This document shows, piece after piece, positions 1,658-12,951 of a DNA stretch of 13,651 nt (its first letter is position 1; the number at the start of each line of letters is the position of its first letter). The notes below the pieces were generated by a model. That model saw nothing but the letters and a program-made list of their open reading frames with translations. It did not search any database and was not told the origin of the DNA. The position numbers and the translations under genes were made by a program. The stretch is from IMG/VR virus record IMGVR_UViG_2654587685_000021. One strand, written 5' to 3'. This stretch comes from a virus. Its lineage: Duplodnaviria; Heunggongvirae; Uroviricota; Caudoviricetes.

Positions 1658-2215
1658 CTATTTATACAATACAACACCGCTCTTTTTAGTTATATATGTG
1701 CAGTTCGATGGTATATCTTTATTTATAAAAGACATTGCACCTATTTTTACATTATCCCCAATTTTACGTGATAATCCAATGATGCAACAATTAGCTCCGA
1801 TATCAACGTTACTACCAATTTTTACTCTTGAACCAGGCATGTCACCATCTATCTGTCCAATGGTAGTATTCTGTCGTAACACCAGATTTTCACCAGCATC
1901 AACAGCAAAATGAACAACAATTCCAGCATGATGGGGAATTGTTAACCCTTTTCCAATATTTGCGCCCAATCCAATTTCACAACCAAATTTGTTAATTATT
2001 TTACTGTTTAACTTTTTGGCTGCTTTCTTATGTAATTTATTACCATTAATATACATTTCGTTAGCCAACCGCCACCAGAAAAGGAAATTCCGGTTACGCT
2101 GTTTTTTCTCTCTTAAAAGCCTCCAGATATCCATACGTTTCCGCCGAATTACTTCATATTTCCAGAAGTTTTTTAAATTAGTAGAGTCCCCAAATAAAAC
2201 AAAGTGAATTGCCAT
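1658..2215 (-). CDS. Hexapeptide-repeat acyltransferase, CysE/WcaB-like (serine or polysaccharide O-acetyltransferase family); AT-rich cargo gene
   Basis: The translation has the ...WWRLANEMYINGNKLHKKAAKKL... helix followed by a hexapeptide-repeat core (GCEIGLGANIGKGLTIPHHAGIVVHFAVDAGENLVLRQNTTIGQ...VKIGSNVDIGANCCIIG) like CysE and WcaB. The start is uncertain: ATG at 2215 or GTG at 2263 (the ORF-track start), neither with a good Shine-Dalgarno. The region is visibly AT-rich compared with the flanking tail genes. Confidence 0.65.
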   Translation of the reverse strand: MAIHFVLFGDSTNLKNFWKYEVIRRKRMDIWRLLREKKQRNRNFLFWWRLANEMYINGNKLHKKAAKKLNSKIINKFGCEIGLGANIGKGLTIPHHAGIVVHFAVDAGENLVLRQNTTIGQIDGDMPGSRVKIGSNVDIGANCCIIGLSRKIGDNVKIGAMSFINKDIPSNCTYITKKSGVVLYK

Positions 2216-2386
2216 TAAGTAAGACAGCACGATAATCTCCTTAATTATTATTTCAGACCACACATATTATAAGGTTAAGAGATTATAAAATCCTGTTGTT
2301 TGTTATTCAAAAACAATTTTCTGAGAAGGACATACAACAGCAAGTCGCCAGTCACCTTCATCAGGAAATTGGCGACATACGTTAAA

Positions 2387-9619: not shown

Positions 9620-10759
9620 GTGGGAAACAATAAAGTGAAATTAGGAAGAAATGATAAGTGCTGGTGTAATTCAGGACTTAAGTATAAAAAGTGCCATCTT
9701 GGTCGAGATCGTGAAACTCCGGTATCCAAAGCCGAGGCACTGAAATTTTCAAAGTCTCTCTCGCAGAGAAAGGCATGTTATGCGCCAGCATCCATGCACG
9801 AAGATTGTGATAAACGCATCGTTCAGGCGCATACGATATCTAAGAGCAGTAGCCTTAAGGCGATCGCCGACTCCAGCAATCACGTCATGGGGGTGATAAT
9901 GAACTTAGCAAGCCTGATGAGAAACAACGGAAAATGGCTTCCCGAGAAGATCGGTATCAATCAGGCATCCACTTTTACAGGATTTTGTGCAGTTCATGAC
10001 AGAATCTTATTTTCATGCCTAGAGAACGAAAAATTTACAGGCACGGACGAGCAGTGCTTTGCCTTAATGTTTCGTTCATTGTCTAAAGAAATTTATGCCA
10101 AAGAAGGGGGAGTGCTATCTTCTGATTTTGCTAAAAATGCCGATAAAGGAAAGCTACAAGTTGAACAGTATTATATTCAGAAATTAATCGACCAGCACCA
10201 AAGTGGCTTAAATGCAGCAATAATTGAATTAAATAATCTTAAAACTAGCCTCGACCGCATCCTACTTAGCAGGCAATTTTCAGAAATTGAAAGTGTTATC
10301 TTCACTTTTGCAGAGCCTTTACCAATTGTAGTTTCGTCAATTCTTTCACCGGAGAGGGATTTCGATGGGACCAAAATTCAGGATTTGAGCGATCTTACAG
10401 TGTCGGCGGAACAAGTATGTTTCAATGCTTTTTCCTGCGGAGGTAAGGGATATGTTGTGTTCAGTTGGCTGAGAACTTCAACAATTATCAGACGTTTTAT
10501 ACGGACACTAATTAAGATCCCAGCTAACAGGATGTTCAATACCCTTCTGTATTTTTTCTTCACAAAGGCCGAAAATACATATTCATCCCCTGAGTGGTGG
10601 GACAGGCTCAGTGATAAACAGCGAGAGAATATCGGCAACATGATTATGTCAGGGGTTGAATTTTTTGGCATACCTACATCACAGGTTGATCATTCCGTTG
10701 ATTATAACGCCGCTGCACTTGAAGAGATAACATGCAGCAACAACGAAATTTGCAGCTGA
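9620..10759 (+). CDS. Hypothetical 379-aa protein with an N-terminal SEC-C-type zinc-binding motif; AT-rich cargo gene between D and ogr (candidate anti-phage or accessory function)
   Basis: Residues 14-26, CWCNSGLKYKKCH, fit the SecA C-terminal SEC-C consensus (CxCxSGxKYKxC[H/C]). The rest has no domain I can name. The start is GTG at 9620; the frame opens at 9608 after TAG, and the first in-frame ATG would delete the motif. No clear Shine-Dalgarno. AT-rich relative to the tail genes. Confidence 0.7.
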   Translation: MGNNKVKLGRNDKCWCNSGLKYKKCHLGRDRETPVSKAEALKFSKSLSQRKACYAPASMHEDCDKRIVQAHTISKSSSLKAIADSSNHVMGVIMNLASLMRNNGKWLPEKIGINQASTFTGFCAVHDRILFSCLENEKFTGTDEQCFALMFRSLSKEIYAKEGGVLSSDFAKNADKGKLQVEQYYIQKLIDQHQSGLNAAIIELNNLKTSLDRILLSRQFSEIESVIFTFAEPLPIVVSSILSPERDFDGTKIQDLSDLTVSAEQVCFNAFSCGGKGYVVFSWLRTSTIIRRFIRTLIKIPANRMFNTLLYFFFTKAENTYSSPEWWDRLSDKQRENIGNMIMSGVEFFGIPTSQVDHSVDYNAAALEEITCSNNEICS

Positions 10760-11048: not shown

Positions 11049-11309
11049 ATGTTCCGTTGTCCGCTTTGTGGCGCATCTGCCCGAATCCGCACCAGTCGTC
11101 CGGAAAACGATTCAAACACTGTGCGGCAAAAGTATTACCAGTGTAACAACCTGGAATGCGGCGTATGCTTCTCAACACTGGAAGCTTTCCATAAATTCAC
11201 ATCAAAACACGCCTCCGGCGTTCACTCTTCGGAAGGTATCCCGTGGCATGAGCTGCCAGCTTCACACAGGGGAAACAATCAGATGAGTTTGCCTTTACCT
11301 CAGAATTAA
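11049..11309 (+). CDS. ogr: Ogr/Delta-family zinc-finger late transcription activator
   Basis: MFRCPLCGASARIRTSR....YYQCNNLECGVCF has the CxxC-(22)-CxxxxC arrangement and the N-terminal consensus I recall for P2 Ogr (MFHCPLC..A.ARTSR...YHQCQN..C). AGGGAGG lies 5 nt before the ATG. It sits at the prophage end as in P2. Confidence 0.85.
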   Translation: MFRCPLCGASARIRTSRPENDSNTVRQKYYQCNNLECGVCFSTLEAFHKFTSKHASGVHSSEGIPWHELPASHRGNNQMSLPLPQN

Positions 11310-11499
11310 CAGGCAGAATTGCCGGAGTAACAAAAAAACGATAGATTACCCGCGGGTGCCTTTCGGCTGATGGTCGGAGGAATACCCGAAGGCCGGATGT
11401 GGAAAGGCCCCGGAAAACATTTCTGTTTAACCGAGGCCCTAACATATCTACCTTAAGCAAGTGATAGGTTAGCGCCTCTCCAACAAAGGAGCAAGCGCT

Positions 11500-11640
11500 A
11501 TGTCGCAAAAATCGCTTACAGCCATCACGTTCTGCGTGACGGTAATCCTCATCATCTGGATGCTACACGGTTCGCTGTGTGAAATACGGATGAGCTTCTG
11601 GGGAGCGGAGTTTGCGGCGTTCTTACAGTGTAAGCAGTAA
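11500..11640 (+). CDS. Hok/Gef-family type I toxin (46 aa), absent from the ORF track
   Basis: ATG 11500 to TAA 11638-11640 encodes MSQKSLTAITFCVTVILIIWMLHGSLCEIRMSFWGAEFAAFLQCKQ: one N-terminal transmembrane helix followed by the Hok-family SLCE(I/L) motif and AAF(L/M). AAAGGA lies upstream; an in-frame TAG at 11470-11472 closes the frame. Confidence 0.7.
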   Translation: MSQKSLTAITFCVTVILIIWMLHGSLCEIRMSFWGAEFAAFLQCKQ

Positions 11641-11728
11641 GGAAACCGCGACGGGGGAGCAATCCCCCGTCAATCGGTTGCTAAGGTTGGCTGAAGTGGC
11701 ACCCTATCTCACAGACATGAACAACAAA

Positions 11729-11760
11729 CCCGCAGCGTAAGAACTGCGGGTTTTCTTTTT
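11729..11760 (+). terminator. Rho-independent terminator downstream of the hok-like gene
   Basis: CCCGCAG (11729-11735), an 8-nt loop, CTGCGGG (11744-11750), then TTTTCTTTTT. It is preceded by a second GC hairpin, GACGGGGGA-GCAA-TCCCCCGTC, which could be the 3' fold-back element of a hok-type mRNA. Confidence 0.6.
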
Positions 11761-11828
11761 GGAACAATCACTAGCTAGTGTACCGTTAACGGCACATAAT
11801 GCTCGCACAACAAACCTGTTAAAAGAGA

Positions 11829-12110
11829 TTACTCAGCATTCTCCTGCTTCCATTGCCGGATCATTTCATCGGTAACATCACCCTCATAACATACCACGTC
11901 ATACCCTCCATTACGGCTATATGCACTGCGTCCACCACATCTACTACCATTCCTTGCATGATTATAAGGACACGCACAATTGCCTGGATAAGATTCAATG
12001 GATTCTTTAATTATTTCTTTTTTGATCTGAGCATCAGACTTTCCTGTTGCTGCATATCCACTAAAAGATACTAAACAAAGGCAGATTGCCATTAATAAAC
12101 CACATCGCAT
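11829..12110 (-). CDS. Small secreted Cys-rich hypothetical protein (about 93 aa with signal peptide)
   Basis: The ORF is open to 12224, but the signal-peptide-like start MRCGLLMAICLCLVSFSGYAA|TGK begins at the ATG at 12110. The mature part has 6 Cys (..YPGNCACPYNHARNGSRCGGRSAY..VVCYEGD..). AT-rich. No family assignment from memory. Confidence 0.5.
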   Translation of the reverse strand: MRCGLLMAICLCLVSFSGYAATGKSDAQIKKEIIKESIESYPGNCACPYNHARNGSRCGGRSAYSRNGGYDVVCYEGDVTDEMIRQWKQENAE

Positions 12111-12412
12111 ACCGATACACTCTATTACTAACCAATCATAGCCCACATCATAAAATCGAGATGAGGAGTACAATACCTTTAACAAGAAGGTGTCATAACG
12201 ATAATATGTCGTGCAATTCATCAAAAAAAAGATCTATATCAAAGAGATAGAACTCTTATCAGCGCTTCAGACATCGGCATTCGAGGCAGCAGAAAAACAG
12301 TAAATCTGACGAATTTGCCTTTTCCCAAGATGTTGTCAGATTAAAAAGATAGATTAGCGCAGGTACCTGTTGGTGGATTGCAGGAGGAAAAATGAAGTCG
12401 AGTGAAAAAATC

Positions 12413-12474
12413 CCAGAAAAATTTTTGTTTAACAGAGGTCCTGGTTCACTATGCGAAATACGGAGGAGCTGCAG
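12413..12474 (+). pseudogene. hok-locus remnant: degenerate second copy with an internal deletion of about 127 bp
   Basis: 12413-12442 matches 11410-11440 (about 26 of 30) and 12443-12474 matches 11568-11600 inside hok (about 26 of 32), with the intervening hok start and transmembrane coding part missing. A 34-aa ORF at 12392-12496 with an AGGAGG upstream retains the GSLCEIR motif but has no transmembrane helix. Confidence 0.5.
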
Positions 12475-12580
12475 AAGAATTCTGCTTCATCCTTAGAGTT
12501 TAAACAGCACGTGCACTACCATTGTTTCTGCATATCGCCACACCATCGCCACTCTACCGCCATTGCACAAAATACAAATA

Positions 12581-12607
12581 CGAAAAAACCACCCGAAGGT
12601 GGTTTCA
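12581..12607 (-). terminator. Rho-independent terminator of the glyW-cysT-leuZ tRNA operon
   Basis: The minus strand reads AAACCACC-TTCG-GGTGGTTT followed by a T run, about 40 nt downstream of the leuZ 3' end. Confidence 0.7.
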
Positions 12608-12648
12608 CGACACTGCTTATTGCTTTGATTTTATTCTTATCTTTCCCA

Positions 12649-12735
12649 TGGTACCCGGAGCGGGACTTGAACCCGCACAGCGCGAACGCCGAGGGATTTT
12701 AAATCCCTTGTGTCTACCGATTCCACCATCCGGGC
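12649..12735 (-). tRNA. leuZ: tRNA-Leu (anticodon UAA)
   Basis: The reverse complement reads GCCCGGATGGTGGAATCGGTAGACACAAGGGATTTAAAATCCCTCGGCGTTCGCGCTGTGCGGGTTCAAGTCCCGCTCCGGGTACCA: 87 nt, long variable arm, encoded CCA end. Confidence 0.9.
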
Positions 12736-12747
12736 TCGGGAAGAAAG

Positions 12748-12821
12748 TGGAGGCGCGTTCCGGAGTCGAACCGGACTAGACGGATTTGCAATCCGCTACA
12801 TAACCGCTTTGTTAACGCGCC
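12748..12821 (-). tRNA. cysT: tRNA-Cys (anticodon GCA)
   Basis: The reverse complement reads GGCGCGTTAACAAAGCGGTTATGTAGCGGATTGCAAATCCGTCTAGTCCGGTTCGACTCCGGAACGCGCCTCCA: 74 nt, anticodon loop UUGCAAA. Confidence 0.9.
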
Positions 12822-12875
12822 AAATCCTTCAGGCCTTTCAGCCAGACATCCGCTTGAGGCCGATGTCTTTTAAAC

Positions 12876-12951
<76 letters not shown>

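Follow-up and report, generated by a model that had tools for sequence, protein, structure and literature searches.

A predicted periplasmic mini-protein from a large, unnamed diderm family is carried as single-gene cargo at the end of a P2-like prophage in leuZ

Phage accessory functions are often encoded by single genes in variable slots, as seen with old, tin and Z/fun of P2, Spackle of T4 and the Cor/Llp lipoproteins. T4 Spackle is a protein of about 100 amino acids with a signal peptide. The gene considered here is likewise a single accessory phage gene in a variable slot; however, its product, WP_001303543.1, has no sequence or fold similarity to P2 accessory and exclusion proteins, Spackle or Cor/Llp, and has no lipobox. 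The accessible portion of a preprint on P2 defence hotspots names GpA-GpO, int-att, int-primase and the tail region (10.64898/2026.02.27.708500), and the slot between ogr/hok and attR is not among the hotspots named there.

Closer relatives are found in protein family collections. WP_001303543.1 is itself a member of phrog_27544, with the same cysteine spacing and invariant residues and no difference from it. The phage mini-proteins phrog_14503 and phrog_3117 share a signal peptide and the core of the domain (reciprocal profile matches, E = 6e-07 / 1e-07) and are likewise located in temperate-phage accessory regions, but they are 52-53 amino acids long, carry two cysteines rather than four and lack both flanking helices. 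Looser analogies are offered by bacterial SH3b, PG_binding_1 and LysM-type domains, which are small periplasmic or secreted modules that combine promiscuously, being found singly, as tandem copies or attached to enzymes; SH3_3 and PG_binding_1 co-occur with the present domain in the same proteins. Excalibur (PF05901), a small cysteine-containing extracytoplasmic module found alone or on secreted SNase-type nucleases, provides a positional analogy. However, WP_001303543.1 lacks the DxDxDGxxCE motif, and neither it nor any of 70 family members matches the Excalibur profile.

The window analysed is a 13,651-nucleotide stretch of Caudoviricetes DNA (IMG/VR record IMGVR_UViG_2654587685_000021), and the gene has the following parts:

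11829..12110, minus strand: precursor coding sequence, 93 amino acids, from the ORF list and its translation (stop codon 11829-11831)
12111..12313, minus strand: 5' region that travels with the gene, with a putative non-consensus promoter; conserved as a block in strain 58-3
12051..12110, minus strand: predicted Sec (signal peptidase I) signal peptide, amino acids 1-20 (MRCGLLMAICLCLVSFSGYA, followed by A), from sequence rules and family N-termini
11832..12050, minus strand: mature domain, 73 amino acids, ~8.1 kDa, pI ~5.8; modelled by AlphaFold2 as helix, Cys-rich loop, helix
11886..11990, minus strand: invariant core Y41-Y75, YPGNCxCPYN...NGSxCGxRSAYSRxGG...CY, from alignments of 25, 70 and 103 sequences

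The ORF runs from an ATG start to a TAA stop over 93 codons (translation MRCGLLMAICLCLVSFSGYAATGKSDAQIKKEIIKESIESYPGNCACPYNHARNGSRCGGRSAYSRNGGYDVVCYEGDVTDEMIRQWKQENAE), and RefSeq places a coding sequence at identical coordinates, the 'hypothetical protein' WP_001303543.1, in E. coli O26:H11 11368 and also in O157:H7. It is a real, conserved gene, far beyond a chance ORF, because its homologues are numerous, alignment columns are invariant, cysteine spacing is rigid and dN/dS is low. A word-indexed search returned 235 homologues with E down to 1e-57, and when 1.84 billion representatives were searched exhaustively with a profile, 2,314 clusters (at 50% identity) passed E <= 1e-3, of which 1,474 also passed E <= 1e-10. 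Purifying selection is indicated by a dN/dS of ~0.2 among E. coli alleles. The gene was found in 598 of 5,426 complete E. coli genomes, 570 of the 598 having the same leuZ configuration, and the EHEC O157 and O26 lineages carry identical or nearly identical copies (99.9%). Homologue alignments begin at Met1 of the 93-residue form. A longer reading of 131 residues from TTG 12224, corresponding to 130-residue forms from metagenome gene callers, was rejected on this ground, and the most divergent E. coli allele, that of strain 58-3, carries an indel of 1 bp within the supposed extension. The original prediction, made from sequence, of a gene for a small secreted protein stands, since the ORF is conserved and a signal peptide is predicted for its product.

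The surroundings of the gene were resolved as follows:

11049-11309: ogr, left of the ORF
11277..11760, plus strand: intact hok/sok locus preceded by the ogr 3' end, forming the left cassette boundary (Rfam and coding sequence)
11354-11510: sok (Rfam match)
11500-11640: hok coding sequence (ORF list and RefSeq)
11726..11753, unstranded: bidirectional GC-rich hairpin from a terminator scan, common to the convergent hok and ORF
12303..12470, plus strand: collinear ogr-3'/hok remnant, forming the right cassette boundary (direct repeats D1-D3)
12583..12700, unstranded: attR, a 118-bp repeat of the leuZ 3' half, 3'ETS-leuZ and terminator, identical to attL
12649-12951, minus strand: leuZ-cysT-glyW (tRNA-Leu, tRNA-Cys, tRNA-Gly), right of the ORF, with pgsA

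The ORF is inside a P2-like (P88/P2-like) prophage integrated in leuZ, of which it is the last gene, 470 bp from attR, because identical 118-bp attL and attR repeats bracket the region. Positions 12583-12700 of the window are 100% identical over 118 bp to a stretch of an O26 genome (L015 6183-6300), the attL copy sits between yecA and the integrase at the other prophage end, and the pair flanks the whole run from integrase to ogr-hok-ORF. Homology to K-12 begins at window position 12580. The gene had been placed at a prophage terminus, on the opposite strand between the hok terminator and the tRNA cluster and in AT-rich DNA, and each element of that placement is borne out: the ORF is on the minus strand between the hairpin at 11726-11753 and leuZ-cysT-glyW at 12649-12951, it is the last gene before attR within the attL/attR bracket, and GC content is 36-41% around it, as against about 50% in the flanks. 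The gene and hok are convergent, and it has the same direction as the glyW-cysT-leuZ operon. The hairpin is a good hok terminator and is T-poor on the minus strand.

Besides the leuZ 3' half, the att repeat holds all of 3'ETS-leuZ, which the K-12 annotation lists as a small regulatory RNA, and its terminator, so that every lysogen has a second, promoter-distal copy of this sequence beside yecA and the integrase.

On the right, the gene is bounded by a second, deleted ogr-3'/hok locus at 12303-12470, and the region is therefore read as a cargo cassette between two hok repeats. A 128-bp internal deletion in this remnant took the hok start codon and N-terminal half, and the spacing of direct repeats D1-D3 changes from 1026/1002 to 874 across it. 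Comparison with other phages reveals that the slot is variable. P88-like phages (Peduoviridae) have ogr and hok in common up to ~11760 and unrelated genes beyond, with a phrog_12383 gene in P88 and zinc-ribbon and TagO-like genes in phage 500465-2. Strain 58-3 carries a copy of block 11821-12313 (the ORF plus 200 bp of upstream sequence) that is 85% identical. This copy sits elsewhere in the chromosome, where it terminates another prophage next to copA and once more follows hok. The same slot in Salmonella holds a homologue of 59% identity, in the order leuZ, ORF, hok copies, ogr, gpD, and this homologue is also found with another prophage body. The gene is thus swappable cargo (a moron) in a variable slot between hok/sok and attP, since the block recurs elsewhere and related phages hold unrelated genes at this point. 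As expected of a prophage moron, it lies between attL and attR and in a slot that holds unrelated genes in collinear phages. It is also kept in the heavily decayed prophage remnants of O157:H7 and strain NDM5.

Several of these loci have features of their own. The Salmonella prophage end (L012 6340-7505) contains two intact hok genes and a truncated third. In strain 58-3 (L004 5299-5871) a gene annotated serine acetyltransferase is directly between hok and the ORF homologue. In NDM5 (L003 1-5500) IS elements, a group II intron and a TIR-domain gene stand in place of the prophage body, and the ogr-hok-ORF end beside leuZ is intact.

Other genes of the window were noted alongside this one. A 379-residue gene of ~40% GC between gpD and ogr (9620-10759, plus strand), annotated 'YecA family protein', is probably another cargo gene; its N-terminus alone (~residues 4-50) gives weak PADLOC matches to E1-E2, E2 and PDC-S12, and the gene is also present in the O157:H7 remnant. 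A serine O-acetyltransferase gene (~1658-2263, minus strand), with the tail-fibre assembly gene on one side and the tail genes on the other, is at the position that corresponds to Z/fun in P2.

With regard to expression, a strong sigma-70 promoter was sought on the minus strand and none was found at 9/12 or 8/12 matches. The best -10-like candidate is TATTAT at 12201-12206, behind a T8 tract, and the upstream block probably carries a non-consensus promoter of the gene's own. The Shine-Dalgarno sequence is weak. No Ogr-type TGT-N12-ACA box is present upstream of the ORF. The idea of an Ogr-activated late gene was rejected, the sole nearby TGT-N12-ACA site (11779-11796) being downstream of the ORF; such sites are as numerous in the window as expected by chance. 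Given the orientation of the gene and the autonomy of the cassette, with its own 200-bp upstream region, expression would probably be from the lysogen and not with the late genes. The site at 11779-11796, between the hok terminator and the ORF stop, is also a perfect 18-bp palindrome, TGTACCGTTAACGGCACA, that fits TGT-N12-ACA.

A hitch-hiking or decaying ORF without function in E. coli might be expected to look like this in some respects, with AT-rich DNA, a weak Shine-Dalgarno sequence, no consensus promoter and a location between hok repeats, where recombination debris gathers. However, the ORF is intact in 579 of the 598 carrier genomes, its dN/dS is ~0.2 and every invariant residue of the family is kept, which makes this explanation exceedingly improbable.

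The N-terminus of the precursor has R2 followed by a 14-residue hydrophobic core, C3-F16, with a best 12-residue Kyte-Doolittle mean of 2.89, and the predicted cleavage site, G18-Y19-A20 before A21, satisfies the -3/-1 rule. By these rules the three marks of a Sec/signal peptidase I substrate are all present, namely a positive n-region, an h-region of 10-15 residues and small residues at -3 and -1. The same pattern is found across the family, where 89% of members of <=125 residues have a hydrophobic N-terminal segment, variable in sequence and mostly ending in Ala. The signal-peptide-like N-terminus of the original prediction is thereby upheld, as far as rules and family-wide pattern can carry it. 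Export via Sec is well supported as a prediction because the N-terminus fits the rules and all identified fusion partners of the domain are extracytoplasmic. The lipobox [LVI][ASTVI][GAS]C is absent, the contexts MAIC10 and ICLC12 having I or L at -1, and a lipoprotein (signal peptidase II) reading was ruled out accordingly.

Six cysteines had been counted, a number that needs correction. The precursor has seven: the signal peptide accounts for C3, C10 and C12, which are not conserved, and the mature domain for C45, C47, C58 and C74, the only four that are invariant in the family. Their spacing, C-x-C-x10-C-x15-C, is the same in 278 of 281 sequences. Between 13 and 18 columns are invariant across the alignments of 25, 70 and 103 sequences (13-14 in those of 70 and 103), all four mature cysteines included. 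WP_001303543.1 has every invariant family residue, with the motifs YPG, CP(Y/F)N, NGS and CGxRSA(Y/W)S(R/K)xGG. Disulfides probably pair C45 with C58 and C47 with C74, since the phage mini-proteins retain the equivalents of C45 and C58 alone, and two such bonds would pin the loop.

The same four invariant cysteines, with their fixed spacing and CxCP motif, could instead form a Cys4 site for Zn, Cu or Fe, and a few members give weak, sub-threshold Pfam matches to zinc-finger and BFD-like models. However, those matches are all far under the cut-offs, the predicted destination is the oxidising periplasm and the mini-variants keep two of the four cysteines, so a metal-binding protein without disulfides is considered very improbable.

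AlphaFold2 modelled the full-length protein as a helix at 26-40, a structured but non-regular Cys-rich stretch at 41-80 and a second helix at 81-91. Confidence was moderate (pLDDT 78-82; full-length mean 82, core ~90), and the loop dropped to ~61-63 in a model of the mature part alone. A Foldseek search of the model against BFVD gave no significant match, and a PDB sequence search with the protein returned nothing; nor did any solved structure prove similar in fold. No Pfam or NCBIfam model covers the query, and no Pfam model was found for any of 70 family members tested. The match to Pfam 'Sclerostin' (E = 0.0024, 18 bits against a cut-off of 27) and sub-threshold matches to RIM2a_ZnF, Ragweed_pollen and others were dismissed as Cys-composition noise. 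In PADLOC-DB, 0 families matched at E <= 1. The PHROGs v4 match is to phrog_27544 ('unknown function'), at E = 7.2e-58, with residues 13-93 aligned to profile positions 1-81 of 81. A literature search on the accession, the leuZ/P2-like prophage, CP-933T and the mini-protein annotation found nothing relevant to WP_001303543.1. The view that the protein has no nameable homology was thus correct: Pfam, NCBIfam and PADLOC give no match, and phrog_27544 carries no described function.

The family to which WP_001303543.1 belongs (phrog_27544) is nevertheless very large, unnamed and diderm-bacterial. Homologues are present in at least 369 species-representative genomes. The hosts are almost all diderm, including Enterobacterales, Acinetobacter, Pseudomonas, Xanthomonas, Sphingomonas, Caulobacter, Oxalobacteraceae, cyanobacteria and Omnitrophota, with one exception among the 80 loci listed, a record labelled Vagococcus. 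Members from cyanobacteria and from gamma-, beta- and alpha-proteobacteria are 45-60% identical, without indels in the cysteine spacing. With a pI of 5.8, the E. coli protein is mildly acidic compared with a family median of 8.8. Whether homologues are always prophage-associated had been raised as a check, and they are not: most are on chromosomes of environmental or plant-associated diderms and on plasmids. In all, 116 plasmids carry a homologue (Xanthomonas, Pantoea, Rhizobium and others), small ColE1-like ones included. On the 4.7-kb Cobetia plasmid NZ_CP059844.1 (L007 2414-2692), the homologue is the sole non-backbone gene, the others being replication and mobilisation functions and one hypothetical protein. 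Clustering of 79 loci revealed no conserved neighbour or operon partner, the recurrent features being lineage-specific synteny (for example, beside cysDN in Acinetobacter) and an antisense-ORF artefact. The protein would therefore work alone, there being no conserved neighbour and the gene being the near-sole cargo of the Cobetia plasmid. Taken together, these features make a Sec-exported, disulfide-stabilised, single-domain periplasmic protein, encoded by an autonomous prophage cargo gene, a well-supported prediction from sequence.

Two further observations concern individual loci. Another very small mobilisable plasmid with a homologue is E. coli pRHB15-C23_5 (5.6 kb; L006 719-1021). In four phylogenetically distant hosts, Geomesophilobacter, Novosphingobium, Xanthomonas and Sphingomonas, the homologue adjoins a second small secreted protein with the motif DN(W/Y)STxGNVNPYTG (L030 3684-3965, L058 3748-3999, L081 4261-4578, L087 3630-3923).

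In phages, a tblastn search of 50,697 phage records gave no full-length homologue. The related mini-proteins of 52-53 residues (phrog_14503/phrog_3117, annotated '(trans)membrane anchored protein') occur in TL-2011b-like and Uetakevirus temperate phages. They keep just G-N-C...DGSRCGGRSAxSRPGG, amounting to ~30 residues after signal-peptide removal. In PHROGs, phrog_14503 is filed in the 'moron' category, and its genes are in accessory regions of temperate podophages, beside ant/arc.

These data bear on the role originally suggested, that of a superinfection-exclusion or lysogenic-conversion factor. Such a factor might act on incoming phages, by blocking their DNA injection, tail lysozyme or receptor, or might defend the cell from colicins or T6SS effectors. 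The gene sits in the final cargo slot, a variable one, of a temperate phage, persists in the decayed remnants of O157:H7 and NDM5 and is in effect the sole cargo of a tiny plasmid, and the phrog_14503 'moron' mini-proteins occupy comparable accessory regions by ant/arc. Against this, there is no PADLOC match, no similarity to known exclusion proteins and no full-length homologue among the 50,697 phage genomes. Furthermore, most members are chromosomal in diverse diderms with lineage-specific synteny, such as cysDN in Acinetobacter, and such strong cross-phylum conservation is a poor fit for an arms-race interface with fast-evolving phage or toxin targets. An exclusion or conversion role is therefore regarded as unlikely.

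The mini-proteins also suggest that the loop itself is the functional epitope, because they keep the loop and one cysteine pair alone. From this it can be argued that the protein is an inhibitor or peptide ligand, presenting C-G-G-R-S-A-x-S-R-x-G-G for docking into some conserved enzyme of the periplasm or the host, perhaps in the manner of a canonical protease-inhibitor loop with Arg at P1. The residues of the loop do not vary. However, the argument is one of motif-level reasoning alone, no inhibitor family is similar in sequence or fold, and the fusion partners described below do not point to inhibition, so this role appears quite improbable.

The contexts in which the domain is fused to others were surveyed in 50 longer family members, taken from the best 150 of the 2,314 matches, with the following partners:

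SH3_3: 12 of the 50 long members
SH3_4: 7 of the 50 long members
PG_binding_1: 3 of the 50 long members
SNase: 3 of the 50 long members
PG_binding_2: 1 of the 50 long members
TonB_C: 1 of the 50 long members
GmrSD_C: 1 of the 50 long members
Adhesin_E: 1 of the 50 long members

All identified partners are envelope or secreted domains. The usual order is signal peptide or membrane anchor, partner and then the family domain, which sometimes comes first. Several long members have two tandem copies of the family domain, and one (P0202) carries an Excalibur-like motif. The SH3b and PG-binding fusions reveal cellular compartment and not activity, and in them the family domain might just as well be the effector. 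The fusions to nucleases suggest another ligand, DNA or Ca2+ for instance.

A nuclease-accessory, Excalibur-like module that binds Ca2+ or nucleic acid (or, when alone, periplasmic or extracellular DNA or metal) would account for these last fusions. The domain is found on either side of SNase, in the position usually taken by Excalibur, and is also fused to the GmrSD_C His-Me nuclease; P0202 has its Excalibur-like motif; a Pseudomonas homologue is two genes from an SNase+Excalibur gene; and the conserved Arg, Ser, Asn and Tyr and the basic family median pI are compatible with such ligands. However, nuclease fusions number 4 of 50 versus ~16 of 50 with SH3b or PG-binding domains, DxDxDGxxCE and any Pfam Excalibur match are absent, and the E. 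coli protein is acidic. This reading is considered distinctly unlikely.

The reading that is tentatively preferred, at somewhat less than even confidence, is that the domain binds a highly conserved ligand in the envelope, for which peptidoglycan is the leading candidate. It is suggested by the cell-wall-targeting fusion partners, the tandem members, the rigid invariant loop and the cross-phylum conservation. The basic family median pI also speaks for a binding module, whereas the acidity of the E. coli protein, the nuclease fusions and the limited bearing of SH3b and PG-binding partners on activity count against this reading. Tandem two-copy members support binding to a polymer because tandem copies are typical of such modules, and cross-phylum conservation with indel-free spacing favours a universal ligand over a fast-evolving protein target. 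Under this model, the ~8-kDa periplasmic mini-protein would be one copy of the domain, in which a rigid C-x-C-x10-C-x15-C loop is held between two helices. The conserved Gly/Arg/Ser/Tyr-rich loop would bind the ligand, which may be peptidoglycan or another polymeric or anionic envelope component, and the bound protein would modify or shield the envelope of the lysogen.

A bolder extension of the envelope-binding model, to which a low probability is given, would make WP_001303543.1 the founding stand-alone case of a new extracytoplasmic fold. This would be a two-disulfide helix-loop-helix of ~70 residues that binds a universal envelope ligand (peptidoglycan glycan or peptide) and is spread by phages and small plasmids as protective one-gene cargo, with the 30-residue mini-peptides as the minimal active loop. 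For example, the sacculus might be shielded from tail lysozymes, T6SS amidases or host lysozyme.

Within this window alone, the gene is an ordinary prophage moron. The wider interest is in the family, which comprises at least 2,300 clusters at 50% identity of a highly conserved, predicted periplasmic protein with no Pfam or NCBIfam model or solved structure, and which temperate phages and small plasmids repeatedly acquire as single-gene cargo. Once defined, its ligand would annotate thousands of 'hypothetical proteins' and account for a domain that accompanies secreted nucleases and SH3b proteins as an accessory. It might further expose a new route by which mobile elements alter the host envelope, including that of EHEC O157 and O26.
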